A stretch of 24,000 nucleotides of DNA. It comes from Sodalis praecaptivus. GTDB taxonomy: Bacteria > Pseudomonadota > Gammaproteobacteria > Enterobacterales > Enterobacteriaceae. This document shows, one piece after another, positions 1,847 to 14,115 of the stretch. Every line of letters begins with the position of its first letter. The first letter of the stretch is position 1. The stretch covers positions 2,508,760-2,532,759 of the forward strand of contig NZ_CP006569.1 in the NCBI RefSeq assembly GCF_000517425.1, written 5' to 3'. Made by a program: the position numbers and the translations under genes. The notes beneath the pieces are model-generated. The model made no database searches and was not told the origin of the DNA. It worked only from the letters and a program-made list of their open reading frames with translations.

Positions 1847-2666
1847 CCGTAGAACAGAATTACTTGCCCGTTTCCGACAAATGATGAGCCGCCAGGAACC
1901 GATCATTGGCGGCGGCGCCGGGACCGGATTGTCGGCCAAATGTGAAGAAGCCGGGGGTATCGATCTTATTGTGATTTATAACTCGGGACGTTATCGCATG
2001 GCGGGACGGGGTTCGCTGGCCGGTTTACTGGCTTACGGCAATGCCAACGAGATAGTTCTCGAGATGGCAAAAGAGGTGATCCCGGTGGTCAAATCCACGC
2101 CGGTACTGGCCGGCGTCAACGGCACCGATCCGTTCTGTCAGTTCGATAGCTTCTTGGATGAGCTGGCCCGCAAGGGCTTTGCCGGTGTGCAGAATTTTCC
2201 AACGGTGGGGCTGATTGACGGTAAATTTCGCCAAAACCTGGAGGAGACAGGGATGGGGTATGCTCTGGAGGTGGATATGATCCGGCTGGCGCACCAGAAA
2301 GGATTACTCACCACGCCTTATGTCTTCAGTAAAGAGGATGCTATCGCCATGACCGAGGCCGGAGCGGATATCCTGGTGCCGCACATGGGCCTGACCACCG
2401 GCGGCAATATCGGCGCCGAAACGGCGACCACCCTGAACGATTGTGTCGCCATGATCACCGAATGGGCCGCCGCCGCCAGAGCCGTTCGTGACGATATCAT
2501 TATCCTGTGCCACGGCGGTCCTATCGCTACGCCGGAAGATGCTGCCTATATCCTGCGCCACTGCCCGCTGGTGAATGGTTTTTACGGCGCCAGCTCCATG
2601 GAGCGCCTGCCGACGGAAATTGCCCTGACCGAGACAACGCGGCAGTTTAAAGCCCTCCGCCGTTAA
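1836..2666 (+). CDS. Phosphoenolpyruvate-hydrolase-like TIM-barrel protein (homologous to the C-terminal half of Tm-1)
   Basis: 276 aa. [49 protein letters not shown] is characteristic of the PEP_hydrolase / COG5564 family, which regularly pairs with UPF0261. The start is coupled to the upstream stop. Confidence 0.8.
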
Positions 2667-2707
2667 GGGCGGCAGGACCAACACCTGGGATAAAGGGGTT
2701 TCGTGCT

Positions 2708-2776
2708 CCGACCCGCGCCGGGTCTGGCCGCGCTTTATTAATGCGCGGGTAGCGCCCGGCGAGTCACGGGCGCTAC
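2708..2776. terminator. Three consecutive GC-rich stem-loops between convergent genes (probable bidirectional terminator or REP-like element)
   Basis: 2708-2727: GACCCG/CGGGTC stem. 2728-2748: CCGCGC-TTTATTAAT-GCGCGG. 2749-2776: perfect 10-bp stem GTAGCGCCCG / CGGGCGCTAC with an 8-nt loop. No clear U-run follows, so an intrinsic-terminator call is tentative. Confidence 0.4.
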
Positions 2777-2853
2777 GCTTCCCGTGAGCGACATCTTGGC
2801 GACATCGCGCACGGCGGTCTGTGTTGCCAGCGAGCATCAACATAAGCGAACCG

Positions 2854-3147
2854 TTACTGACCCGCGTTCTCATGGTTCATGTCATTCTTTTTCATCATCA
2901 TTGATCCCTGCTGAGCTTGGTTCGGTTTCATCATCATCGTGCCGTCATGCTTATCAGATTTCATCATGGACTGCGGGGCGTCCCCGTTTTTCATGCAGTT
3001 CGGATCCTTGCCATTACCCTGGTGTTGCACACAGGTCTGGGTCTGAGCCGCGGCTGCGTTCTGGGTCGTCGCGTCTGCCGCAAAGACCGACCCCGTAGTG
3101 ACCAGTGAACAGGCGGCGGACAGGGCCAGCATGATTAATTTTTTCAT
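2854..3147 (-). CDS. Secreted methionine-rich small protein (MXKDX-repeat-like / MrpX-like)
   Basis: 97 aa. AAGGAG lies 6 nt upstream of the ATG. Sec-type signal MKKLIMLALSAACSLVTTGSVFA|AD. The mature C-terminal 47 aa contain 10 Met in MMK / MMMK / MMMKK blocks, plus one Cys pair (C-x12-C). Confidence 0.8.
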   Translation of the reverse strand: MKKLIMLALSAACSLVTTGSVFAADATTQNAAAAQTQTCVQHQGNGKDPNCMKNGDAPQSMMKSDKHDGTMMMKPNQAQQGSMMMKKNDMNHENAGQ

Positions 3148-3311
3148 CGCGTTCTCCTTGAGGGGGTGAATACACTGACTGTAACCCTGTCATTGTCCGG
3201 CATACGTGTTCCCCAAAGCCTCGCGTAAACTTAAACAATATGTGATATCTCAACGACGGTAGATGGGGTTGTGTAAACTGCAACAGACAGAAGGCAAAAC
3301 AGAGGGGCATC

Positions 3312-4034
3312 ATGGCCGGGGACACGTTAAAAAAAATCCTGATTGTGGAAGATGATGGCGATATCGCTCATCTTCTTACGCTGCATCTGCATGATGAAGG
3401 ATTTGACATTACGCATGCGCCTGATGGTCATCAGGGCGTCGCCCTGCTGGAACAAGGCGGCTGGGACGCGCTGATTCTCGACCTGATGCTGCCCGGGGTG
3501 GACGGGCTGGAAATATGCCGCCGGGCGCGCAATATGGCGCGCTATACGCCAATCATTATTATCAGCGCCCGCGCCAGCGAAGTGCACCGCGTACTCGGGC
3601 TGGAGCTGGGGGCCGATGATTATCTGGCCAAGCCTTTTTCCATGTTGGAATTGGTGGCGCGCGTTAAGGCGCTGTTTCGCCGTCAAGAAGCCATGATCCG
3701 CAATATGAAAATAGATGCGGGTACCCTGAGTTTTTCCGGTCTGGTTATCGACCCCCTCGCCCGCGAAGTCCATCTGGATAAACGGCCCGTGGAGCTGACG
3801 CCGCGCGAATTCGATCTCCTCTATTTTTTCGCCAAACATCCCGGCAAAGTGTTTTCACGCCTGAGCCTGCTCAATCACGTTTGGGGCTATCAGCATGAGG
3901 GTTATGAGCATACCGTCAACACGCACATTAATCGGCTGCGGCTCAAAATAGAACGCAATCCGGCGGAGCCGGAACGCCTGCTGACCGTCTGGGGCATGGG
4001 GTATAAATTCGCTCCCGCAATTGACAATACATAA
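3312..4034 (+). CDS. OmpR/PhoB-family two-component response regulator
   Basis: 240 aa. Receiver domain (ILIVEDDGDI...LILDLMLPGVDG...ADDYLAKPF) plus winged-helix output domain (LTPREFDLLYFF...VWGMGYKF). Confidence 0.95.
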   Translation: MAGDTLKKILIVEDDGDIAHLLTLHLHDEGFDITHAPDGHQGVALLEQGGWDALILDLMLPGVDGLEICRRARNMARYTPIIIISARASEVHRVLGLELGADDYLAKPFSMLELVARVKALFRRQEAMIRNMKIDAGTLSFSGLVIDPLAREVHLDKRPVELTPREFDLLYFFAKHPGKVFSRLSLLNHVWGYQHEGYEHTVNTHINRLRLKIERNPAEPERLLTVWGMGYKFAPAIDNT

Positions 4035-4044
4035 GAAGCCCGCC

Positions 4045-5550
4045 ATGAACAATATGACTCTCTCCCGGCGTCTGGTGCTGGCCTTTACCGCGCTGCTGTT
4101 GGCCAGCTGCTTTATTTCCGGTTTTTTGCAGGTGCGCTCCGCCAATGAATACAGCCAGGGCGTTATACAGCGCCTATCGGCCAATCTGGCCGCACAGATT
4201 GCCAGCAATAACCCGCTGCTGAGCGAGGACGGGCTGAATCAAGCCTCGGTCCATTCCCTGTTTGGCCAGTTGATGTCGGTGAATCCGAGCGTGGAAGTTT
4301 ATCTGTTGGATCAACAGGGCAACATCATCAGCAGCGCCGCGCCAGCAGGGAAAATTCAGCAAAAAACCGTTGACCTACGGCCGATTCAGGCGCTGCTCGC
4401 CGGCGCGCAGATGCCGGTATATGGCGATAACCCGCGCGATCCCAAGACCCGCCAGGTCTTTAGCGTGGCGCCGCTGAAAATGGGCGATAGGGTCAAAGGC
4501 TACGTCTACATCGTGCTGCTCGGCGAGCATTACACAATGCTCTCAAGCCAGGCGCAATATCTGTCGGCGATAGGGATAACCCTGCGCTCGATGGTGCTGG
4601 TCATCATCTTCGGCACGCTGGCGGGGATCCTTGCCTTTCGTTGGGTCACCAAACCGATGCGCCAGCTGGCGGCGCAAATCGCCACCTTAGATAAAGGGGG
4701 AATGGGGGCTATTCAGGCGCTGGCGCAAAGCACCCCGTCCGCCGATGCGCCGCGCGATGAGATAGCCCTGATCCAGCAGGCGTTTGTCAGCCTCGCTCAG
4801 CGTATTGATCAACAGTGGCAAAGCCTGAAGACCCAAGATCGGCTGCGTCGGGAATTTATCGCAAATGTCTCGCACGATCTGCGCACGCCGCTGACGTCGT
4901 TGCAGGGTTATCTGGAAACGCTGTCGGTAAAATCCTTAAGCCTCAGCGAAGCGGAGCGCCAGCGCTTTTTGGATATCGCCGTGCATCAGAGCCGAAAAGT
5001 GAGCCGGCTGGCGCAAGAGCTGTTCGAGCTGGCGCGGTTGGAATACGGGGTGGTCGAACCCAAAAAAGAGGCATTCTCCCTGGGTGAACTGGTTCAGGAT
5101 GTGTTAGAGAAATTTGCCCTGACCGCCGAGGCACGCCAGCAGCGGCTGGTGGCCGCCATGCAGCCGGGTCTGCCGCTGGTCTATGCCGATTTGGGCATGA
5201 TCGAGCGGGTCCTGACCAATTTATTGGATAACGCCGTCCGCCATACGCCAAAAAATGGCCAGATTGATATCCGCCTTTCGACGCGGCAGGATGAGGTAAT
5301 AGTGCGCCTCCAGGACAGCGGGCCGGGGATTGCTGATGAGCTCAAAGAGAGTTTATTCGTTCGTCCGTCGGTTCTCAGTCAGCAACGCTACCGTCCCGGT
5401 GGGCTCGGGCTGATGATTGTGCAACGTATGTTGCTGCTGCATAACAGCGTTGTCTCGCTGGTGGATGCCCCGCAAGGGGGCGCCTGTTTCGAGTTTGCTC
5501 TTACCGCACTGAGTCAGAAAAACAGCGGGCCGACCCGTCTTGAAAGGTGA
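4045..5550 (+). CDS. Sensor histidine kinase (two TM segments, ~150-aa periplasmic domain, HAMP, HisKA, HATPase_c)
   Basis: H-box FIANVSHDLRTPLTSLQGY, N-box LLDNAVRHTP, G1 DSGPGI, G2 GGLGLMIV. TM1 is around LVLAFTALLLASCFISGF and TM2 around MVLVIIFGTLAGILAF. The start is placed at ATG 4045. The track start, TTG 4021, would overlap the regulator gene. Confidence 0.9.
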   Translation: MNNMTLSRRLVLAFTALLLASCFISGFLQVRSANEYSQGVIQRLSANLAAQIASNNPLLSEDGLNQASVHSLFGQLMSVNPSVEVYLLDQQGNIISSAAPAGKIQQKTVDLRPIQALLAGAQMPVYGDNPRDPKTRQVFSVAPLKMGDRVKGYVYIVLLGEHYTMLSSQAQYLSAIGITLRSMVLVIIFGTLAGILAFRWVTKPMRQLAAQIATLDKGGMGAIQALAQSTPSADAPRDEIALIQQAFVSLAQRIDQQWQSLKTQDRLRREFIANVSHDLRTPLTSLQGYLETLSVKSLSLSEAERQRFLDIAVHQSRKVSRLAQELFELARLEYGVVEPKKEAFSLGELVQDVLEKFALTAEARQQRLVAAMQPGLPLVYADLGMIERVLTNLLDNAVRHTPKNGQIDIRLSTRQDEVIVRLQDSGPGIADELKESLFVRPSVLSQQRYRPGGLGLMIVQRMLLLHNSVVSLVDAPQGGACFEFALTALSQKNSGPTRLER

Positions 5551-5573: not shown

Positions 5574-6293
5574 TTAACCTTTCACCAAGACCGGCGCGGT
5601 GCTCCACAGCGCCGGGAACGACTTTTTCAATTGCTGAAGCTTTGGCAGATCGTTGATGACGATGTAGGGATAGTCCGGGTGGTTATTCAGGAAGTCCTGA
5701 TGGTCGTTTTCCGCGGGATAGAACGTCGCATTTTCCTCTATCGTTGTCACCAGCGGTGCGCTAAAACGGTGGCTCTGGTTGAGCTCGGCAAGATACGCCT
5801 TTGCAACTTTCCCCTGCGCAGCACTCAGCGGAAATAACGCCGAGCGGTATTGCGTGCCGTAATCCGGGCCCTGACGGTTGAGCTCCGTCGGGTTGTGCGC
5901 CACGGAGAAGAATATATGCAGCAGTTGGCCGTAGGTGACCCGTTGCGGGTCAAAGGTAACTTGAACCGATTCTGCGTGTCCGGTCAGCCCGGTACTTACG
6001 CTGTCGTAGTACGCGGTGCGGGCCTTACCGCCGGTATAGCCGGACGTGGCGCTGATCACCCCTTTGACGTGCTGGAAGACGCCCTGCACGCCCCAGAAAC
6101 AGCCGCCGGCAAACACGGCGGTTTCCCTTTGCGCCGTCCCCGGCGCTTCGTCCTGCAATGGCGCCGGAATGGCAACGGCGGGTTCGGCTTCAGACCAGGC
6201 GACGGGGTGGAACCCCAGTGCGGCGATAACCAGAACCGACGCGCCGATGCTGAGGATCCGGCGGGAAAAACCAGAGCCGGTCGCTATTTTCAT
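5574..6293 (-). CDS. msrA: Exported peptide-methionine (S)-S-oxide reductase MsrA (single-Cys type)
   Basis: Catalytic motif GGCFWGVQG. N-terminal signal MKIATGSGFSRRILSIGASVLVIAALGFHPVAWSEA. There are three consecutive ATGs at 6299, 6296 and 6293. GAGGAG immediately precedes 6299, so 6293 has the best spacing. The mature protein has only one Cys. Confidence 0.9.
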   Translation of the reverse strand: MKIATGSGFSRRILSIGASVLVIAALGFHPVAWSEAEPAVAIPAPLQDEAPGTAQRETAVFAGGCFWGVQGVFQHVKGVISATSGYTGGKARTAYYDSVSTGLTGHAESVQVTFDPQRVTYGQLLHIFFSVAHNPTELNRQGPDYGTQYRSALFPLSAAQGKVAKAYLAELNQSHRFSAPLVTTIEENATFYPAENDHQDFLNNHPDYPYIVINDLPKLQQLKKSFPALWSTAPVLVKG

Positions 6294-6306
6294 CATCATC
6301 TCCTCG

Positions 6307-8055
6307 CTAACCAAAGGTGAAGGCGTAGGCGTTCACCCCCGCCTCGTCAAACTCAATACTAAAGGTGTGTTCACCGCTGCCGTCGGGCTGACGAATCAGC
6401 TGATACAAGCGCTGTTCCGTCACCGTGCCGCCGCCATCGGCAGCCACATCGGCGCCGTGCATCTCACCCGGCGCACGGCCGTCAATCAGCACTTTAAAGC
6501 GGACGGGATTGCCCGCTTGACTCGGCCCGAGGACCAAATGCAGGTCACGGGCGTGGAATCGATAGATAATCTTGCCGCGCTCGCTATTGAGCGTGATACG
6601 CTCATCGTTGATGGTCCAGCGCCCCGCCAGTCCCCATGCATTGAGCGGTAGCGTAGCCGGTTTGACATAATCCGCCGCCCTGTCCGCCCTCACCTCGCCG
6701 GAGGCGAAATTTTCCGCCCGGCTATAGCCGAGATAGGTTTCCGGCGAAATGTCGTACTGGCCGCTGGCCGCCTGCTCTACCCCCGTAGCCGAGACCTGGC
6801 TGATGCTATCAGTGACGTTTTTCGCCCCCGCCTGACGCAACAGCGCCTGGATCACCCGCTCCGATTGGTCATCATCACCTTCGCCAAAATGCGTGTAGCG
6901 GATATGGCCAAAGGCATCAATAAAATAGTGCGCCGGCCAATATTGGTTGTTGAACGCCCGCCAGATGCGGTAGTCGTTATCGATCGCTACCGGGTAGGTG
7001 ACGCCCAGTTTTTTCGCCTCTTTGGCCACGTTATCACTATCTCTTTCAAAGGCGAATTCTGGGGCGTGCACGCCTATCACCACCAGCCCTTGATCGCGAT
7101 ATTTCTCCGCCCAGGCTTTGACATAAGGCAGCGAACGTAAACAGTTAATGCACGAGTAGGTCCAGAAGTCGACCAGCACCACTTTGCCGCGCAGCGACGC
7201 CGTCGTCAGCGGCGGCGAATTCAGCCAGCGCACGGCGCCGTCCAGCGACGGCATCAAGCCCTCATCCGTCAGCGCCGGCGCCTCACCGGCAACGGTTTGG
7301 GCGCTGGCGGGCGCCGGCACGGTTTCCGTCGCGCCGGGCGAGAGTTTTTGCACCAGCGTCTGTTCAATCCCGCCGGTTGAGCTGGTGGAAAGCCGCGCCA
7401 GCACGCCGGTATCCAGCCCAAAGGCGATGGCGACGACGCCCAGCAGCATACCCGCGCCAAGGACACGGCGGATCCACTCCCCGACGCCCAGAGAACGCTT
7501 CATGGCCTTGAAAACCTTGCCGCCTATCAGCAACGCCAACGCAAGCGAGGTCGCGGCGCCTGCCGCATAGGCCAGCAGCAGCAGCGTCGAATTGAGGTTT
7601 GCGCCCTGTAGCGCGGCGCCGGTCAATACCAGCCCCAGGATCGGCCCGGCGCACGGCGCCCATAACAGCCCGGTGGCAATCCCCAGTAAAAACGCGCTGC
7701 CCGCCCCGGCCGATTGACCCGCGGTTATCCGGTTTGACAACGCGTTACCCGCGGACACCAGCGGATGCATTACCCGCTCCGCCAGCCGCGGCAACAGCAG
7801 GGTCACGCCAAACAGCGCCATCAGAATAAGCGCCGCACCGCGTCCGTACTGGTTCGCCGCCACAACCCATCCCCCGCCGACGGCAGCAAGGGTGGCAAAT
7901 AGCGTAAACGTCAGCGCCATACCCGCCAGCAGCGGCAGGCCGCTGCGGATAAAGGGCCTGTCGGCGCGGGCAAAAACAAACGGCAGCACCGGTAAAATAC
8001 AGGGGCTGGCAATGGTCAGCAGACCGCCCAGATACGCAAGAAAGACAACCAGCAT
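6307..8055 (-). CDS. dipZ: DipZ-type protein: CcdA/DsbD membrane electron-transfer domain fused to a periplasmic thioredoxin-fold CxxC domain and a C-terminal DipZ domain
   Basis: TM-domain cysteines in IASPCILPVLPF and LWAPCAGPILG. TlpA/ResA-like motif FWTYSCINCLRSLPYV. ATG 8055 has AAGGA 8 nt upstream; the track start is TTG 8061. Confidence 0.9.
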   Translation of the reverse strand: MLVVFLAYLGGLLTIASPCILPVLPFVFARADRPFIRSGLPLLAGMALTFTLFATLAAVGGGWVVAANQYGRGAALILMALFGVTLLLPRLAERVMHPLVSAGNALSNRITAGQSAGAGSAFLLGIATGLLWAPCAGPILGLVLTGAALQGANLNSTLLLLAYAAGAATSLALALLIGGKVFKAMKRSLGVGEWIRRVLGAGMLLGVVAIAFGLDTGVLARLSTSSTGGIEQTLVQKLSPGATETVPAPASAQTVAGEAPALTDEGLMPSLDGAVRWLNSPPLTTASLRGKVVLVDFWTYSCINCLRSLPYVKAWAEKYRDQGLVVIGVHAPEFAFERDSDNVAKEAKKLGVTYPVAIDNDYRIWRAFNNQYWPAHYFIDAFGHIRYTHFGEGDDDQSERVIQALLRQAGAKNVTDSISQVSATGVEQAASGQYDISPETYLGYSRAENFASGEVRADRAADYVKPATLPLNAWGLAGRWTINDERITLNSERGKIIYRFHARDLHLVLGPSQAGNPVRFKVLIDGRAPGEMHGADVAADGGGTVTEQRLYQLIRQPDGSGEHTFSIEFDEAGVNAYAFTFG

Positions 8056-8088
8056 TGACAAGTTCCTTGTTCTGGCTAGGAAAAAATT

Positions 8089-8610
8089 TTAGGCGTTATC
8101 CGCCGTAAACAGCATTGCCTGGCCATTCATACAATAGCGCAGCCCGGTCGGCGGCGGGCCGTCGGCAAAGACGTGGCCCAGATGTCCCCCGCACCGGCGA
8201 CAATGCACCTCATCCCGCACCACGCCAAACGACGTGTCGCGGCGCGTAGCGACGGCATTTTCCAGCGGCTGCCAAAAGCTGGGCCAGCCGGTATGGCTGT
8301 CGAATTTCGCGGCGGAGGAGAAAACAGGAAGATGACAGCCCGCGCAGGCAAACACGCCCCGGCGATGTTCATCATTCAACGGGCTCGAGTAGGGGGTTTC
8401 CGTGCCCTGTTTACGCAATATGAGGTATTGCGCGGATGTCAGCTGCCGCCGCCACTGCGCATCGGTATGGGTAATGGCAAATTTTTCATCCACCGGCGCC
8501 GCGCCTGTTCCCACGTCAGCGGCAAACAGCGAGGGCAAGCGCCCCGCCGCCGCCAGCCCGAGGGCGAAAACGCCGCCGCCCACCAAAAAATGTCGTCGAT
8601 TTAACATCAT
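8089..8610 (-). CDS. msrB: Tat-exported peptide-methionine (R)-S-oxide reductase MsrB (zinc type, single catalytic Cys)
   Basis: Twin-arginine signal MMLNRRHFLVGGGVFALGLAAAG...LFA|AD. Two CxxC zinc motifs (CAGC, CRRC). Catalytic RYCMNG. HTGWPSF sits where two-Cys MsrBs have GCGWPSF. GGTGAGG precedes ATG 8610; ATG 8607 is also possible. Confidence 0.9.
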   Translation of the reverse strand: MMLNRRHFLVGGGVFALGLAAAGRLPSLFAADVGTGAAPVDEKFAITHTDAQWRRQLTSAQYLILRKQGTETPYSSPLNDEHRRGVFACAGCHLPVFSSAAKFDSHTGWPSFWQPLENAVATRRDTSFGVVRDEVHCRRCGGHLGHVFADGPPPTGLRYCMNGQAMLFTADNA

Positions 8611-8738
8611 CGCCTCACCCATAAAATAAGCAATGATGTCAACTTACAGAGAAAATGCTTACCAAATCCTCCGCAAATGTTCACTTTTTCGTGATAACTT
8701 CTCGGCGGTTTACCGGTGCGTTGCAGGACGCGGCGGCG

Positions 8739-9485
8739 TCAGGGGGCGACCGTACACTGCCAGCGACCGTCGCTGGTGATTTGGCGGGCGTCGATCGTAA
8801 GGGAAAGCTCTGCGTCGGCGAGGTGAAATTGGCTGTATTCCAGTATCGCACCCTCGGCGTTGGCGGCGCGGCGTTCGAGGCGCAGCAGCGGACTGCCCTC
8901 CGGCAGCGACAGGATCCGGGCCAGCCGGGCGCTGCACAATGCCGGCACCACGCTGTCGCAGGCCTTGACCGGTGAGAAACCGTAGCTTTCGCACAGCTGG
9001 GCATAAAGCGAGCGTCCCTCTTCAATATGGCTCAGGCCGCTATAGGCGCTACCGTCCAGCCAGGTGACGCCATGACCCACCACCCGCCCGTCCTGCTTTA
9101 CATACCGCTCAAGGCGCTGCAGCTGGCTGCCGATGGCCAGACCCATTTTCACGCCGATATCGCCATCGGCCATGGTTGGCATCAGCGACTCGATTTCAAG
9201 GGCGACCGGCGCGCTGCCGGTAAAGCGCAGCAAGAGATCGGGTAAGTTGCTGTAGTAATGTTGCAGAATATCGCGATTGATAAAGGTGCCCCGGCCCTGT
9301 TCGCGAAACAGAATGCCGGTCTGCACCAGCGCATCGATGGCCTGTTTGACCGTGCCGCGCGCCACGTTGAACTCCCCGGCCAGTACCAGCTCGCCGGGCA
9401 GTTTTTCAACATAAGAAAAAGCAATAATCCGTTCCAGAATGATGTTTTTTATCCGCAAGTAAAGCGGTAGGCCCAGAGGCTCCAT
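8739..9485 (-). CDS. GntR-family (HutC subfamily, UTRA effector domain) transcriptional regulator
   Basis: I start the track ORF 8739-9620 at ATG 9485 (MEPLGLPLYLRIKNIILERI...LPGELVLAGEFNVARGTVKQAIDALVQTGILFREQGRGTFI). The length of 248 aa is typical of HutC-type regulators. The upstream extension would overlap the SIS gene. Confidence 0.9.
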   Translation of the reverse strand: MEPLGLPLYLRIKNIILERIIAFSYVEKLPGELVLAGEFNVARGTVKQAIDALVQTGILFREQGRGTFINRDILQHYYSNLPDLLLRFTGSAPVALEIESLMPTMADGDIGVKMGLAIGSQLQRLERYVKQDGRVVGHGVTWLDGSAYSGLSHIEEGRSLYAQLCESYGFSPVKACDSVVPALCSARLARILSLPEGSPLLRLERRAANAEGAILEYSQFHLADAELSLTIDARQITSDGRWQCTVAP

Positions 9486-9498
9486 GCTGTCGCCTTCA

Positions 9499-10239
9499 TC
9501 AAAGATAGTGGATCTGGCTGTGATAGCGGTTAAATATATCCTGATTGATCTTCTGATTGCCGTCAATGTTGGCGCTGGCCAATACCGGCGGCGGTTGCCG
9601 GTGGGCCAGCATGATTTCACTGATGCGGATCACCAAGAGATTGCCGATAGTCGCCCCCATAACTGTAGAGAGCGGCGCCACTTTTTGGTCAAGGGACGGC
9701 AGGCTTACGGCCGCGTCGCCATAGTCGCACAGGTTATCGATAACCACCTCCGCCACCTCGCATAATAGCTTGCCCGACGCGTGGCGCGGGCTGACCCGTT
9801 CGGCGGTCGCCAGGCTGGTAATGGCAATGACATGGGCCCCGCGCGCGCGCGCGCTTAGCGCCACATCGAGCGGCACCGCATTGCGGCCGGATACCGAATG
9901 GATAAGCACCACGTCCCCCGCCGCTATCGGCGACGCCTGCACCAGCTCGCGTCCGAGCCCTTCCACGTTCTCCAGCGCGCTGGTCAAGGGTAGCGGCCTG
10001 ACGTTTAACATTAGCGCGGGGCAAAACAGCGGATTGACGATCGCCAGTCCGCCGGCGCGATAACACAGCTCTTCGGTTAGGATACCCGCATGGCTGGCGC
10101 CAAAAACAAACAGCTTGCGGCCGTTGAGGGCGGCATCGGCCATCAACGCGGCGGCCGCGTCTAAAGAGGGGGCGCTACTCTCGAGCCGATCCAGCCTGGT
10201 GCGGATGGCCTGCACATAAGCGTCGGTTGCTTTACTCAT
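9499..10239 (-). CDS. SIS (sugar-isomerase / phosphosugar-binding) domain protein, UPF0309-like
   Basis: 246 aa. NGRKLFVFGASHAGILTEE and VVLIHSVSGRNAVPLDVALSARARGAHVIAITS are SIS-fold signatures. Confidence 0.8.
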   Translation of the reverse strand: MSKATDAYVQAIRTRLDRLESSAPSLDAAAALMADAALNGRKLFVFGASHAGILTEELCYRAGGLAIVNPLFCPALMLNVRPLPLTSALENVEGLGRELVQASPIAAGDVVLIHSVSGRNAVPLDVALSARARGAHVIAITSLATAERVSPRHASGKLLCEVAEVVIDNLCDYGDAAVSLPSLDQKVAPLSTVMGATIGNLLVIRISEIMLAHRQPPPVLASANIDGNQKINQDIFNRYHSQIHYL

Positions 10240-10256
10240 CCTGTTTCCCCTGCGGC

Positions 10257-11567
10257 TTAAAAGGTGAGAAATTTACCGATGAAGGCAATCAACGGCGCCA
10301 GCACGAACATGTCGCTGTCGCCGGCCCATAGCGCGGTATCGGGGATAGTGTTATTGATAAGATAGCTCACGCAGAAATACTGCCCCCATGCCACCAGCGT
10401 GGAGGTAAAAAACCCCGCCAGCAGCGCGCCTTTATAGCCCCCTGTCACGTTACCGAACACCCCGGCGGTGCCGGCATGGAAAAAAATCACGATCATACTG
10501 GGGATAAAGACATATCCGGTGGTGGTACCGATAACCATCAGCCACAGCAGGGAGCCGGCGAACGCGCCGATAAACCCCAAGACTACGGCGTTGGGGGCAA
10601 AATTGAAAATAATCGGACAGTCCAGCGCCGGTCGCGCGCCCGGCACCAGCCGCGTTCCGATGCCGTTAAACGCGGGCACCATTTCGCCGATAAACATGCG
10701 CACCCCGAGCAACACCACCGCGATCCCGCCGGTAAACAGCAGCGACTGCTTGAGCGCGAAGATATAAAAGCTCAGATCGCCGGACTCGCCCAGGATTTCC
10801 TGCGCTTTAGGCGAACCTTTAATTTGCAGCAGCAAGGTGCCAATAAAAAACAGCAGCGTCATGGTCAGGGCGGTCACCACGTTCGAGTCGCGCAAAAAGC
10901 CCAGGTTTTTCGGCACCTTAATATCTTCGGCGCTCACCTTGTGGCGGGCGAAAAGATTGCCCGCCAGCGCGCCGAGCAGCGCCACCGAGGCGGATGAGTG
11001 GCCGAGCGCCACGTTATCGTTGCCGGTAATGCGCCGTACCCAGGGCTGTACCAGCGCCGGCTGGAAGGTCCAGTAAACGCCCAGGATCAGCGACAGCGCA
11101 AGCGTAAGCGTCACCGGCGATACGTCCGGCCGCTTGTTGACAATGACCCCGGCGAAGATCATGGCAGTCCAGAACATCATATGTCCGGTCAGGTAAATGT
11201 ATTTAAAGCGCGTCAGCCGCGCCAGCAGCAGGTTAATGGCAAAACCCGCGGCAATGGCGATGGTCACACTGCTGCCGTAACGCTCGCTGAAATGCGTCTG
11301 TCCCATGATATGGGTCAGGCTCATTTGCTGCAGGCCAAACACCTCCGTCCAGATGGGCTGGAATATCAGCAGCGCAGCAACGATAATGCTGGCGCCCGCG
11401 CCGATTATCAAAAATCCCAGGATGCCTTTTAACGTGCCGGAGACGATATCCGCCAGCGGCTTATGTTGCAGCACCAGGCCCAACAGCACGATAAGCCCTA
11501 TCAGTATTGAGGCCTCGCCGAAAATATTGACCGTTATCCAGTGCAGAACATGAATGAAATCGCTCAT
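10257..11567 (-). CDS. PTS ascorbate-family (UlaA/SgaT-type) EIIC permease
   Basis: 436 aa polytopic membrane protein. The N-terminus (IFGEASILIGLIVLLGLVLQHKP...TLKGILGFLIIGAGASII) resembles E. coli UlaA. Its ATG overlaps the EIIB stop (ATGA at 11564-11567). Confidence 0.9.
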   Translation of the reverse strand: MSDFIHVLHWITVNIFGEASILIGLIVLLGLVLQHKPLADIVSGTLKGILGFLIIGAGASIIVAALLIFQPIWTEVFGLQQMSLTHIMGQTHFSERYGSSVTIAIAAGFAINLLLARLTRFKYIYLTGHMMFWTAMIFAGVIVNKRPDVSPVTLTLALSLILGVYWTFQPALVQPWVRRITGNDNVALGHSSASVALLGALAGNLFARHKVSAEDIKVPKNLGFLRDSNVVTALTMTLLFFIGTLLLQIKGSPKAQEILGESGDLSFYIFALKQSLLFTGGIAVVLLGVRMFIGEMVPAFNGIGTRLVPGARPALDCPIIFNFAPNAVVLGFIGAFAGSLLWLMVIGTTTGYVFIPSMIVIFFHAGTAGVFGNVTGGYKGALLAGFFTSTLVAWGQYFCVSYLINNTIPDTALWAGDSDMFVLAPLIAFIGKFLTF

Positions 11568-11848
11568 GACGCGTCTCCCTTGAACAGCCCGGAAGCGACC
11601 AGCGCGCGCTCGATTTCTTGTTGATCAATGAAGTTATTGACCACGACCACCGGGCAGGCGAGATGGCGCAGACCGGCGACAAACTCGCTATGGGTCACCA
11701 CCAGGTCGGCGCTGGCCGACGCCGCGGAGGAAACGTCCATATGCTCGACGGAGGCACCGTGCCCCAGCTTGCGCAATACCGTTTCCACGTTCATTTTCAG
11801 GATTAGGCTGGAGCCCATCCCTAAACCACAGACGGTTAAAATTTTCAT
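11564..11848 (-). CDS. PTS EIIB component (UlaB-like)
   Basis: 94 aa. MKILTVCGLGMGSSLILKMNVE carries the phospho-accepting Cys in the C-G-x-G-x-G-S-S loop. A GAGGAAAG RBS is present. Confidence 0.85.
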   Translation of the reverse strand: MKILTVCGLGMGSSLILKMNVETVLRKLGHGASVEHMDVSSAASASADLVVTHSEFVAGLRHLACPVVVVNNFIDQQEIERALVASGLFKGDAS

Positions 11849-11898
11849 ACGCTGCTTTCCTCAGTAACGGCAAACTCGCCGGCAATAGCGCCTAGGCA

Positions 11899-12330
11899 TC
11901 AAGATGTTTGAAACAGGTGTAACAGGTCGTCGCGCTCACGGCTGGTCATCAAAATAGTTCGTTTTGACGTTTCGCCCAGCACGGTAACAACGCGCTGTAT
12001 CAGCGCAATATGACTGTCGCCGTCGGTCGCCGACAATCCGATAAGCACCGACACCGGGTCGTTTTCGTCGTGGCCGAACGTGAGCGGGGTGGCCAGACGC
12101 ACCAGGCTTATCTGCGCCCGCCGTGCGCCCTGCTGCGGGCGCGCATGCGGCATGGCCAACCCCGGCGCGATGACAAAGTAGGGACCGAACTGATGGTAAT
12201 TTTCCACCATCGCCCGCACGTAGGCGTCATTGCAGGCCCCTACGTCCTTTAAGGCGTCCCCCGCCGCGGCGATCGCCTGCTCAGGCGTGGCGGCGTCGCA
12301 ATGGGTGACGACAGCGTTAGGATCTATCAT
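11899..12330 (-). CDS. PTS EIIA component (mannitol/fructose/ascorbate EIIA-2 type, UlaC-like)
   Basis: Started at ATG 12330 (MIDPNAVVTHCDA...). The active-site His context is FVIAPGLAMPHARP. The track extension to 12387 overlaps the creatininase gene. Confidence 0.85.
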   Translation of the reverse strand: MIDPNAVVTHCDAATPEQAIAAAGDALKDVGACNDAYVRAMVENYHQFGPYFVIAPGLAMPHARPQQGARRAQISLVRLATPLTFGHDENDPVSVLIGLSATDGDSHIALIQRVVTVLGETSKRTILMTSRERDDLLHLFQTS

Positions 12331-13060
12331 GGGCCGTTTCCTCCAGGTGCCGCGTGAGTGACGCCAAGGTGGCATGGAAAGCGGCATCCACCAGCGCCCG
12401 GCCTTTTTCCGCGCTGGCGGCGGTAGGGTCGCCCAGCACCGCGTAATCTGAAAACTCGGTCCAATGTATCGGCCGGGCGTTGAAATTGTCAGGGAAGTCA
12501 GGATAGTGCGCGCGGGCTTGACGCATATCGACGTGTTCCTCGGCTAACGCCAGCATCAGCGAGGTTTCTATCTCTTCGGCATGCATGTAGCCGGCACGGG
12601 CGGTTTTACTCTCTTGCAAGCGGGCCACGGCCTCCGCCATGCCCGCCCAGCTGTAGCTCAGCAGATGCATATCGTGCTCCTTCAGGTGGCGCGCGGCGCT
12701 TTTGATGGCGTCGAAGTTGCCGTAGTGCGCATTGATAACGGCCATGCTGGTAATGCCGTAACCCTGCATATTGCGCGCCAGCGCTATCAGCAACGCCGTG
12801 AGCAGATCGTTACCGAGATCGATCGCGCCCGCATGACCGCGTAACGACCAGACCTGGCCATAGGGCACCGCCGGCAACGTGAGCGCAACCTCCCCTAGCG
12901 CGGCATCCAGCCTGGCGCAAAAGCGTTCCGCCAGTAGATTATCGGTCGCCAGCGGCAGATGATCGCCATGGGGTTCGGTCGCGCCGAGGGGCAGCAGAGC
13001 AATACGCGCCCGCGTCAGCGCCTGCTTTGCCTGGCTTTCGTTAAGGAGATCGAGTCGCAT
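12317..13060 (-). CDS. Creatininase-family metal-dependent amidohydrolase
   Basis: Started at ATG 13060 with an AAGGA RBS, directly after the upstream stop at 13071. Motifs LLPLGATEPHGDHLPLATD, INAHYGN and MHAEEIETS match creatininase-family metal and catalytic signatures. Confidence 0.85.
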   Translation of the reverse strand: MRLDLLNESQAKQALTRARIALLPLGATEPHGDHLPLATDNLLAERFCARLDAALGEVALTLPAVPYGQVWSLRGHAGAIDLGNDLLTALLIALARNMQGYGITSMAVINAHYGNFDAIKSAARHLKEHDMHLLSYSWAGMAEAVARLQESKTARAGYMHAEEIETSLMLALAEEHVDMRQARAHYPDFPDNFNARPIHWTEFSDYAVLGDPTAASAEKGRALVDAAFHATLASLTRHLEETAHDRS

Positions 13061-13070
13061 GGTGTTATCC

Positions 13071-14042
13071 TTAACCAAAAGAGAAATAGCGGGCCGGATT
13101 ATCCACGAAGAACGCCTGCAACAGCGCTTCCCCGTCCATGCCCGCCGCGTGGGCTTCCTCAATGAAGCGCGGCCGCCAATCGGTTAAGATAAACTTCAGC
13201 CCCAGCCCGCCCAGCCCGTAGTGCGCGCTCATCGATTTACGGGCAAAATCACCGCCGATCACGATGCGATCTTGATAGCCTTTGCGGCACAACGAGAGAA
13301 TCGCCTCGGTGCGCACGTTCTCCGGGTGATACTTAATACGCGTCATGCCGTCGAACAGGATAAAAGCACCGGTTTTTGCCACCTGATGATGCAGCCAAGG
13401 GTCGGGATTGCGATCCAGATGGGCAAAGCACAGACGCGACAAATCCAGGCCGAGATGCTTGAAAATAGCGGCCTGCTCCAGCGCCATGGTGCCCATTTCG
13501 GTATGGGTATGCATCGGCGCGCCGGTGTGTTGCTGGGCGCGGACGATAACCTCCATGGTTTTCCGCTCCAGCCGGGAGATGGTGTTGTAGCCGGTGCCGC
13601 ATTTCACCACGCCGGCGCGCTGTGAGGTGCCGTCAATGCCGTGAAGCACCTCGTTGCACACCTGCTCGACCAGCGCGTCCACCGGCGTCGCGTCTATCCA
13701 CTCGGCGAAGGTGTGATCCTGTCCCGGTCGCGGGCTACTCCACAGAAAACCCTTATTGAAGCCGGCGGTGGCAATCACCTGCACCTGTTGCCGTTCGGCC
13801 ATCGCCGCCACCTCAGCGGCCCGGCGGCCGTAATCGGGCGCGGTGGCATCGTAAAACGAGCGCCCGCCCGCCTGGGCAAAATCGGCCAGCTCCCGCTCTG
13901 ACGCGGCCAAATCATCAAGCAGTAAATCGTCATCCTGGCGCTGCTGCCAGTAGGGGGGGATGCAGTAGACATGGTCGTGACTGTAGGTGACACCCAGCGC
14001 ACGGCTGTCGATATCACCGTGAAGCGTACGGATAACTCCCAT
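13071..14042 (-). CDS. Phosphotriesterase-homology protein (PTE/PHP family, amidohydrolase superfamily); probable lactonase or esterase
   Basis: Started at ATG 14042 with a strong GAGGAGG RBS. Metal-ligand motifs are SHDHV (HxH), MHTHTE, FAHLD and GGDFA. 323 aa, similar in size to E. coli Php. Confidence 0.9.
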   Translation of the reverse strand: MGVIRTLHGDIDSRALGVTYSHDHVYCIPPYWQQRQDDDLLLDDLAASERELADFAQAGGRSFYDATAPDYGRRAAEVAAMAERQQVQVIATAGFNKGFLWSSPRPGQDHTFAEWIDATPVDALVEQVCNEVLHGIDGTSQRAGVVKCGTGYNTISRLERKTMEVIVRAQQHTGAPMHTHTEMGTMALEQAAIFKHLGLDLSRLCFAHLDRNPDPWLHHQVAKTGAFILFDGMTRIKYHPENVRTEAILSLCRKGYQDRIVIGGDFARKSMSAHYGLGGLGLKFILTDWRPRFIEEAHAAGMDGEALLQAFFVDNPARYFSFG

Positions 14043-14089
14043 CGTTTCCTCCTCAGGTCGGCGGGAAATGGCGAGATTGATAATGGCAT

Positions 14090-14115
14090 TGACCAGATGA
14101 CCAGACAAGTGATCA
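14090..14115. promoter_or_regulatory. Candidate operator upstream of the PTE-PTS operon: TGACCAGA-TGACCAGA-caag-TGATCA
   Basis: A perfect tandem 8-mer (14090-14097 and 14098-14105), then the related self-complementary hexamer TGATCA (14110-14115). It lies 48-73 bp upstream of the first start codon. TGGTCA/TGACCA resembles the GGT-x-x-ACC-type half-sites of HutC-family operators. Confidence 0.35.

Follow-up and report, generated by a model that had tools for sequence, protein, structure and literature searches.

A Predicted Secreted Methionine-Rich Protein Encoded Beside an OrhK/OrhR-Type Two-Component System and Thiol-Based Methionine Sulfoxide Reductases in Sodalis praecaptivus

The Locus

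A stretch of 24,000 nucleotides of the Sodalis praecaptivus genome (contig NZ_CP006569.1, 2,508,760 to 2,532,759; hereafter the window, from whose first letter positions are counted) carries a small gene for a predicted secreted, methionine-rich protein, which is divergent from a two-component system (TCS) consisting of a response regulator (RR) and a sensor histidine kinase (HK). Convergent with the kinase gene are the genes for the methionine sulfoxide reductase (Msr) MsrA, a DipZ-like protein and MsrB. An earlier note on this DNA had singled out the Met-rich gene and had considered two roles for its Met clusters, a sacrificial sink for oxidants or the binding of Cu(I)/Ag(I), of which it favoured the first. 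The genes and features of this module are as follows.

2854..3147, minus strand: Met-rich protein gene, 97 aa, predicted to be secreted (open reading frame (ORF) translation, database match, ratio of nonsynonymous to synonymous substitution (dN/dS), AlphaFold2 (AF2) model)
3079..3147, minus strand: its signal-peptide coding part, 23 codons, MKKLIMLALSAACSLVTTGSVFA followed by AD (direct sequence reading; small residues at -3/-1 kept family-wide)
3154..3159, minus strand: ribosome-binding site (RBS) AAGGAG, 6 nt 5' of the ATG (direct sequence reading)
2846..2865, minus strand: weak terminator-like hairpin over the stop codon of the Met-rich gene (7 pairs, T-poor tail; a consensus match only)
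3312..4034, plus strand: OmpR-family RR, OrhR homologue (65% identical to OrhR of uropathogenic Escherichia coli (UPEC) CFT073, 69% to the copy on plasmid p666 of enterotoxigenic E. coli (ETEC), 85% to the Raoultella RR)
4021..5550, plus strand: sensor HK, OrhK homologue, probable start ATG 4045 (45% identity to OrhK over the full length)
5574..6314, minus strand: MsrA, predicted to be exported, N-terminal leader with SRRILS (TIGR00401, 167 bits; PF01625)
6307..8061, minus strand: DipZ-like membrane electron shuttle, 584 aa (PF02683, PF08534, PF17991; PDB 2HYX, E=8e-64)
8089..8622, minus strand: MsrB, predicted to be exported, twin-arginine leader MMLNRRHFLV, two CxxC zinc motifs (TIGR00357, 161 bits; PF01641)

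MsrA and MsrB are probably exported, with Tat as the route, since both carry twin-arginine motifs and the SRRILS of MsrA precedes a hydrophobic stretch. The DipZ-like protein, a homologue of Mycobacterium tuberculosis DipZ, has a transmembrane (TM) domain of CcdA/DsbD type joined to a thioredoxin-like domain with a CxxC and to a Thioredoxin_10 domain. Together, the export leaders and the DipZ homologue indicate that a complete thiol-based periplasmic Met-sulfoxide repair chain may be encoded beside the Met-rich gene. The MsrA ORF begins with MVSEEMMMKIATG (6293-6314), a TTG followed by three consecutive ATGs, and overlaps the stop codon of the dipZ-like gene; as the orthologues are 239-240 aa long, one of the ATGs at 6293-6299 is the probable start. 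The presence of MsrA and MsrB and the absence of cop or cus genes, on which the earlier note had based its preference, were borne out when every long ORF of the window was scanned against Pfam: neither efflux genes nor genes of the cop, cus, sil or pco kind were found.

The Met-Rich Protein and Its Family

Translation of 2854-3147 on the minus strand, a strand that the earlier note had left unstated, gives the 97-aa protein as it had been quoted, preceded by the AAGGAG that had been called as its RBS, and the product is an exact match to WP_025422361.1, annotated in Sodalis praecaptivus as a "hypothetical protein". Its signal peptide has the n-region MKK, some 20 hydrophobic residues and the small-x-small site VFA/AD, and in relatives the site reads VSA/AD or SYA/AD, with the small -3/-1 residues kept in all of them. 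By the n/h/c and small-x-small rules, a Sec-type signal peptide with cleavage at VFA/AD is therefore inferred, in agreement with the earlier proposal. There is a third Cys, C13, which forms part of the signal peptide and has a Trp as its counterpart in one Raoultella relative (P0036). The idea that the protein is a lipoprotein attached via Cys13 was rejected, as this residue is too near the N-terminus, the -3 residue is non-canonical, a hydrophobic stretch follows, and P0036 has the Trp.

The mature protein comprises 74 aa, of which 10 are Met (13.5%), 19% are charged and a single one belongs to the hydrophobic set I/L/V/F/W/Y. The final 37 residues contain nine of the Met (24%) and the final 47 all ten (21%), so that the Met content of about 21% reported for the C-terminal half holds, as do the reported blocks MMK, MMMK and MMMKK: the mature part contains the runs MM, MMM and MMM, each with Lys after it. 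Relative to a background Met frequency of 2.5%, taken from 19 long ORFs of the window, the probability of at least ten Met in the mature part is ~1e-5 (over 73 residues, one short of the VFA/AD cut), and that of nine Met among the 45 residues past the second Cys is ~1e-6. The Cys pair itself, C39/C51, has the spacing C-x11-C and not the C-x12-C given before. An AF2 model built on an alignment of eight sequences has a mean pLDDT of 51 and a pTM of 0.14, and its mature part lacks secondary structure, which, with so shallow an alignment behind it, fits an intrinsically disordered protein.

Above-threshold matches of the Met-rich protein to Pfam, NCBIfam or PDB families, including metal-binding ones, were absent, and a PDB sequence search with the peptide profile found nothing. 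Weak matches to Asr, ExtJ, JUQZ and DUF7155 were discarded, being below cut-off, located in the signal peptide or N-terminal part, and each limited to at most two family members. Four ORFs that overlap the gene, 2784-3098 (+), 2917-3108 (+), 3014-3325 (-) and 2304-2873 (-), are taken from these overlaps to be shadow ORFs; the last is mostly antisense to a phosphoenolpyruvate (PEP)-hydrolase-like gene, and each of the other three overlaps either the conserved reading frame of the 97-aa protein or its promoter region.

When 1.84 billion representatives were searched exhaustively with phmmer, four genuine clusters were returned, namely Sodalis, L001 (51% identical), [Pantoea] beijingensis and the enterobacterial contig L006; a fifth match proved to be a repetitive protein unrelated to the family. 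A profile search added a Raoultella group of six proteins. The sole return of a scan of a genome collection, the Verrucomicrobiales locus L002, was spurious, an off-frame QHQGNGKD match within another gene. The Raoultella peptides share the signal peptide, contain three or four blocks of the MMK(A/K) type and an AMAMKKK tail, and are without the Cys pair. Throughout the family the signal peptide is kept, each mature peptide has 9-12 Met, arranged in runs that come after G-S/T, and hydrophobic residues are scarce; a His is often found three residues ahead of a Met run (H-x-G-S/T-M-M). The mature parts of the relatives consist of 15-18% Met and 22-36% charged residues.

Between Sodalis and the L001 orthologue, dN/dS is 0.48 for the Met-rich gene and 0.13 for the adjacent RR gene, and it is below 0.48 for the Met-rich gene in more diverged pairs for which dS could still be estimated. 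The Met-rich gene is thus under weak purifying selection. The number of Met runs varies among the relatives, and it is composition, not sequence, that stays constant, a pattern that, together with the unstructured AF2 model, fits a bulk chemical scavenger. In all loci the ORF, the signal peptide and the promoter box described below are intact, and so is the RBS, of which the last base alone varies. The exact match to WP_025422361.1, the retention of the ORF in at least five diverged loci and the dN/dS of 0.48 establish the gene as real and conserved, and it is probably regulated.

The Two-Component System

Judged by sequence, the Sodalis TCS is homologous to OrhK/OrhR of UPEC. The identity of the HK to OrhK extends over the periplasmic sensor domain, and identity to the HK of the p666 paralogue is 47%. 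The phospho-acceptor Asp57 of the RR aligns with Asp55 of OrhR, and both this residue and the H-box of the HK are conserved relative to OrhR/OrhK. The HK has two TM helices around a periplasmic domain of ~150 aa, followed by HAMP, HisKA and HATPase domains. In an alignment of seven orthologues, a single Met of this periplasmic domain (4045-4700) is invariant, within the motif LF..LM..NPSVE.Y, and none of its Cys or His residues are. By analogy with HprS, which senses via Met, this invariant Met is a candidate oxidant-sensing residue. A PDB search with the HK sensor domain found nothing, and a search for relatives of this domain returned mostly gene fragments; Hafnia P0012 is an isolated remnant without the module.

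A DNA search of E. coli genomes located a related TCS in 349 of them, and the CFT073 copy is c3564/c3565, beside hlyCABD. OrhKR responds to peroxide stress, as elicited by tert-butyl hydroperoxide or the reactive oxygen species of macrophages (PMC8550376). OrhR binds the c3566-c3568 promoter, as supported by an electrophoretic mobility shift assay, and activates this operon directly; the inverted repeat TCACA-N15-TGTGA just 5' of the -35 has been proposed as the site (PMC8550376). The genes under its control encode an MsrQ-like protein (c3566), an MsrP-like protein (c3567) and C3568, a small Met-rich peptide homologous to MrpX (PMC8550376). E. coli plasmids also carry an OrhKR-like TCS together with a cytochrome b, a Mo-oxidoreductase and an MXKDX peptide, as on p666 of ETEC H10407 (L008, 3071-7053) and in about 70 other places. 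For ETEC, OrhKR orthologues are reported to be missing (PMC8550376); the version on the plasmid is a paralogue that has diverged from that of CFT073.

A Regulator Box at Two Promoters

The promoter regions of the Met-rich gene and of msrB share an OrhR-type box, and the features concerned are the following.

3213..3247, minus strand: OrhR-type box TATCACATATTGTTTAAGTTTACGCGAGGCTTTGG, midway between the divergent start codons (motif match, alignment with the CFT073 Pc3566 region)
8662..8696, minus strand: second OrhR-type box TATCACGAAAAAGTGAACATTTGCGGAGGATTTGG, upstream of msrB (motif match, conservation)
3192..3197, minus strand: candidate -10 GACAAT of the Met-rich gene, 25 nt past the start of GAGG in the box (spacing as in E. 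coli)
8641..8646, minus strand: candidate -10 TAAGTT of msrB (spacing as at the Met-rich gene)

The motif TATCAC-N19-GAGGnTTTGG occurs exactly twice in the window, both times without mismatch when up to two were allowed, versus an expectation of 0.03 from shuffled sequence. The first box is 83 bp away from one of the divergent start codons and 82 bp away from the other. The box next to msrB is kept in L001, L003, L006 and L015, and also in L010, a Steroidobacteraceae metagenome-assembled genome (MAG). At the same distance past GAGG as the -10-like hexamers GACAAT and TAAGTT, both E. coli promoters have CATAAT. A scan of 2500-3400 for the sigma-70 consensus yielded no promoter, and no -35 is recognisable at the Met-rich gene, which fits an activator-dependent promoter. 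The published repeat TCACA-N15-TGTGA was confirmed in CFT073 and aligns with the promoter region of the Met-rich gene of Sodalis and its relatives, with a perfect TGTGA right half in L001. With an orthologous TCS and an OrhR-type site in place, the Met-rich gene appears to belong to an OrhKR-type regulon, and the same box at both promoters suggests that one regulator would co-induce the peptide gene and the Msr operon.

A further block, GGGTTGTGTAAACTGCAA (3262-3279), is situated past the box on the way to the start codon of the RR gene; it is kept in all four Sodalis-type loci and not in E. coli, and may be the RR-HK promoter, with TAAACT as its -10.

Conserved Linkage Across Loci

Every family member examined, that is, the four Sodalis-type clusters and the six Raoultella-type proteins, is encoded divergently from an orthologous RR. 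The arrangements take the following forms.

L001 and [Pantoea] beijingensis (L003-5): whole arrangement as in Sodalis
L006 / L007: msrB, HK, RR and peptide, between rpoS and mutS
Raoultella L015: msrB-dipZ-msrA, peptide, and an orphan RR that lacks a kinase gene and is 85% identical to its Sodalis counterpart
R. terrigena L013: RR and peptide only, adjoining yqgA/speC

The earlier note had proposed that the neighbours of homologues be tabulated for msr as opposed to cop or cus genes, and the outcome agrees with its preference: 5/7 distinct loci keep msrB or the whole msrB-dipZ-msrA set, and copper, silver or other metal-resistance genes occur within the module in none of the seven. The kinase-less RR regions of Raoultella are at 7999-8835 in L015 and 8110-9237 in L013. 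The R. terrigena arrangement implies that the peptide does not strictly depend on this Msr set. In two loci found through distant kinase relatives, the Steroidobacteraceae MAG L010 and L011, msrB-dipZ-msrA is divergent from RR-HK and no Met-rich gene accompanies them; a 98-aa ORF downstream of msrA in L011 was considered as a counterpart and rejected, as it is not Met-rich. These peptide-less loci suggest that the TCS and MsrA/B-DipZ are an old pair, to which the peptide is an add-on seen in Enterobacterales.

The module is found at classic island sites, at rpoS-mutS in L006 (5735-13022), at yqgA/speC in L013 (9001-13794), and in L009 (10413-22190). The yqgA/speC side in Raoultella is the pheV site that is used for orhKR in CFT073. 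That the island sites differ suggests horizontal mobility of the module. In [Pantoea] beijingensis, the Met-rich gene is directly followed by an RcnB-family gene (periplasmic Ni/Co/Cu homeostasis; L003 10383-10847) encoded on the other strand, a neighbour that is not kept in the other loci.

A Probable Sacrificial Oxidant Sink

We think it probable that the Met-rich gene encodes a small, disordered, MrpX-like periplasmic protein whose exposed Met clusters act as a rechargeable sink for HOCl, chloramines and peroxides and are recycled by MsrA/MsrB. This was also the preference of the earlier note, and it is strengthened by the homology to OrhR/OrhK, the common box, and a linkage to the RR and msrB that is kept without metal genes. 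From the observed anatomy of the locus, the homology of its TCS to OrhKR, the shared box and the conserved gene order, we infer an inducing signal, export, oxidation of the peptide and its recycling by MsrA/MsrB. An oxidant would be sensed by the OrhK-like kinase, leading to phosphorylation of the OrhR-like regulator, which would act on TATCAC-N19-GAGGnTTTGG at two promoters and switch on the Met-rich gene and msrB-dipZ-like-msrA together. The exported peptide would take up oxidation as Met-sulfoxide, thereby sparing essential envelope proteins, and would be reduced back by periplasmic MsrA (S epimer) and MsrB (R epimer). To regenerate these enzymes in turn, the DipZ-like protein would import electrons from cytoplasmic thioredoxin and pass them on through its thioredoxin-like domain, and the net outcome would be a catalytic drain from oxidant to NADPH.

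A Met-rich periplasmic peptide accompanied by a periplasmic Msr and an oxidant-responsive regulator has precedents in MrpX (PMC4436054), BcrX (PMC8315932) and C3568 (PMC8550376). MrpX of Azospira suillum PS has a signal peptide, 20% Met and 44% charged residues; hypochlorite strongly induces and rapidly oxidises it, and its regeneration by the periplasmic reductase YedY/MsrP has been proposed (PMC4436054). BcrX of Brucella melitensis is an MXKDX protein and part of the HOCl-induced bcrXQP operon (PMC8315932). Like MrpX and BcrX, the Sodalis protein bears a predicted signal peptide and appears to be paired with a periplasmic Msr under an oxidant-responsive type of regulator. Unlike them, it is associated with a TCS instead of an ECF sigma/anti-sigma pair (SigF/NrsF, BcrS/AbcS), and with MsrA and MsrB fed by a DipZ-type thiol relay instead of the molybdoenzyme MsrP/YedY and MsrQ. 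Of the features that define the MrpX class, a signal peptide (by a heuristic check) and linkage and a common box with an Msr were thus found, the reductase being MsrA/MsrB and not MsrP.

The closest counterpart in regulation is C3568, in both CFT073 and its p666 paralogue. The TCSs are homologous (65-69% identity for the RR, 45-47% for the HK), the divergent promoter is homologous to that of the Met-rich gene and has the OrhR site, and both peptides are small and secreted, with 10-11 mature Met, a Cys pair, an AxA/AD site and a C-terminal Gln. Both modules are on islands, the Raoultella copy being at the yqgA/speC side of the pheV site of CFT073. C3568 differs in being encoded by the third gene of an msrQ-like/msrP-like operon, whereas the Sodalis peptide gene stands alone directly behind its promoter and its partners, thiol-type MsrA/MsrB and the DipZ-like protein, form a second operon with its own box. 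The peptides also differ in pattern, with single Met residues in MxKDx pentapeptides in C3568 and MM/MMM runs in Sodalis.

The earlier note had likened the Sodalis protein to the MXKDX class, a resemblance that does not amount to membership. The model for this family, TIGR02953, scores 35-36 bits on C3568 (35) and the p666 peptide, against a cut-off of 41, and gives no match to the four Sodalis-type members even at E<=10; there is one M-x-K-D-x motif in the Sodalis protein versus 4-5 in C3568 and the p666 peptide, and pentapeptide periodicity is absent. UniRef names the [Pantoea] beijingensis orthologue an MXKDX repeat protein, for which TIGR02953 gives no support. Homology to C3568 or the p666 peptide is likewise not demonstrable (BLASTP E=37, hhalign probability 1.4%), the likeness not extending demonstrably beyond composition; shuffle-controlled Smith-Waterman z scores run from -1.4 to 3.5 against these peptides and from 7 to 14 within the Met-rich family. 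The Sodalis-type peptide may be a highly diverged descendant of a C3568-type peptide after loss of the msrQ/msrP-like genes, as the promoter homology hints, or an independent invention.

Extracytoplasmic Msr systems of the thiol-based type include Neisseria PilB and CcdA-Etrx-MsrAB2 of Streptococcus pneumoniae. Another is ModRS-MsrAB of Fusobacterium nucleatum (PMC9239216), which shares with the Sodalis module an extracytoplasmic thiol Msr, electron supply of the CcdA/DsbD and thioredoxin-like kind, and a TCS of peroxide-responsive type. No dedicated Met-rich substrate peptide is listed for that locus in the abstract, and its MsrA and MsrB are fused (PMC9239216). In Sodalis they are separate and it is CcdA and thioredoxin that are fused, as in DipZ.

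Several observations weigh against a sacrificial sink. The Met content of 13.5% and charge of 19% are below the values of MrpX (20% and 44%; PMC4436054), and sequence homology to C3568 or MXKDX peptides could not be demonstrated. C3568 itself is without a reported oxidant phenotype, the sensitive mutants being c3566 and c3567 only (PMC8550376). A sink that relied on Met alone would have no need of the recurrent His before the Met runs (H-x-G-S/T-M-M) or of the conserved Cys pair. R. terrigena retains the RR and the peptide although its kinase and local msr genes are gone. Finally, S. praecaptivus has TCACA-N15-CGCGA, with two substitutions in the right half of the published repeat, and this CGCGA may weaken binding of the regulator.

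Metal Binding, Sensing and Other Less Likely Roles

Small, disordered, secreted proteins that are rich in Met and His and encoded beside a TCS are also known from silE and pcoE, and the Sodalis protein could, in the manner of SilE/PcoE or of CusF-type motifs, serve as a sponge or metallochaperone that binds the soft ions Cu(I)/Ag(I) in the periplasm through Met thioethers and nearby His, with MsrA/MsrB keeping the ligand Met reduced as MsrP does for CusF. We consider this unlikely. It shares with SilE/PcoE its small size, secretion, predicted disorder, richness in Met and position beside a TCS, and His residues do occur near the Met runs (KHDGTMMM in Sodalis; HSGSMM, HPGTMM and HGDAMAM in Raoultella), with 1-4 HxxxM per protein. 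The motifs in which SilE/PcoE are rich are all but missing: MxxH occurs in 0/7 members and a single HxxM in 1/7, the Sodalis protein having neither, and nor was there any match to metal-binding families. The RcnB-family neighbour, which would suit a metal role, is confined to [Pantoea] beijingensis among the loci examined, and the lack of efflux, oxidase or resistance genes applies to the window and to the module of all seven loci alike. The regulator also does not belong to the CusRS/SilRS family, as models of heavy-metal TCSs score far below their cut-offs (TIGR01387, 162 versus 279 bits; TIGR01386, 139 versus 293), the RR scores higher with MtrA- and PhoB-type models, and the HK sensor domain has just one invariant Met and no invariant His or Cys. 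A link between metal and oxidant does exist in E. coli, where CusF is a substrate of MsrP and copper stress and Met oxidation are connected (PMC9302797).

The position of the box exactly midway between the divergent genes invites a comparison of another kind. A divergent layout with the regulator site in between is classic for cpxP-cpxRA and zraP-zraSR, and the tightest kept linkage in the family is that of peptide and RR, not of peptide and Msr. The protein might then be a periplasmic accessory or co-sensor of the TCS, following the logic of CpxP-CpxA or ZraP-ZraS, with its redox state read by the kinase and reset by MsrA/MsrB; we give this a small chance. Raoultella retains the peptide despite loss of the kinase gene, the distant TCS relatives L010 and L011 are without such a gene, and the fast-evolving mature sequence with its variable repeat number is unlike a specific protein-protein interface. 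A CpxP/Spy-like fold or LTXXQ-type motif is also lacking, with no Pfam match and no helix in the mature part of the AF2 model. A related and similarly improbable idea is that the Met-sulfoxide form of the peptide is itself a ligand, read by the OrhK-type kinase or, in lineages that have lost the kinase, tuning the regulator via another partner, and erased by MsrA/MsrB. If true, the peptide would be a secreted "methionine redox messenger" that enzymes reset, and two Msr systems without chemical kinship, MsrPQ in E. coli and MsrA/B-DipZ here, would each have recruited it on their own.

Least likely of all is another envelope role within the regulon (as a holdase or an Asr-like disordered protein protective against acid or stress) with incidental Met richness, or a decaying gene: the weak Asr match (22 bits, E=1.6e-4), the fast evolution (dN/dS 0.48) and the very narrow taxonomic range would agree with this, but the Asr model (NF033636) gives 22.4 bits against a cut-off of 50, over the signal peptide and N-terminal part in 1/4 members, the Met count is steady at 9-12 while the remaining sequence drifts, the gene with its signal peptide, RBS and promoter box is intact in all loci, and dN is lower than dS.

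The Rest of the Window

Beyond the module, the window holds PTS, ABC-transport and dehydrogenase genes. Adjoining the Met-rich gene, and outside the module, is an overlapping pair at 479-2666, a UPF0261-family gene (NF002673, 624 bits) and the PEP-hydrolase-like gene (PF09370); in L001, the sequence just beyond the Met-rich gene resembles the end of the same PEP-hydrolase-like gene. On the other side, 8739-14108 encodes a GntR/UTRA regulator, a SIS-domain protein, an ascorbate-type PTS (EIIC-GAT, IIB, IIA), and creatininase-family and phosphotriesterase-family proteins, which looks like a cluster for the utilisation of a sugar acid or lactone. The GntR gene is the upstream neighbour of msrB in L001 as well.

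Implications

The principle of a Met-based sink is already known, and what the Sodalis locus appears to present is a different pairing, in which a Met-run peptide of distinct sequence is coupled to a periplasmic Msr chain of the thiol type and both are placed under a regulator akin to OrhKR. Full-text literature searching found no description of a Met-rich peptide combined with MsrA/MsrB-DipZ and a regulator of this type. The sacrificial Met-rich peptides of Azospira, Brucella and UPEC are paired with MsrP, whereas the likely partner here is the thiol-based MsrA/MsrB-DipZ, under the same regulator family as in UPEC. If the oxidant-sink reading is true, "peptide sink plus recycler" would be a modular design with exchangeable recyclers, and the peptide would offer a natural dedicated substrate for the study of exported MsrA/MsrB. 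The motif TATCAC-N19-GAGGnTTTGG could be used to map the OrhR regulon in those gammaproteobacterial genomes that carry it. Sodalis praecaptivus is a free-living relative of insect symbionts, and an inducible antioxidant module of the envelope may bear on how such bacteria survive the oxidative bursts of their hosts.

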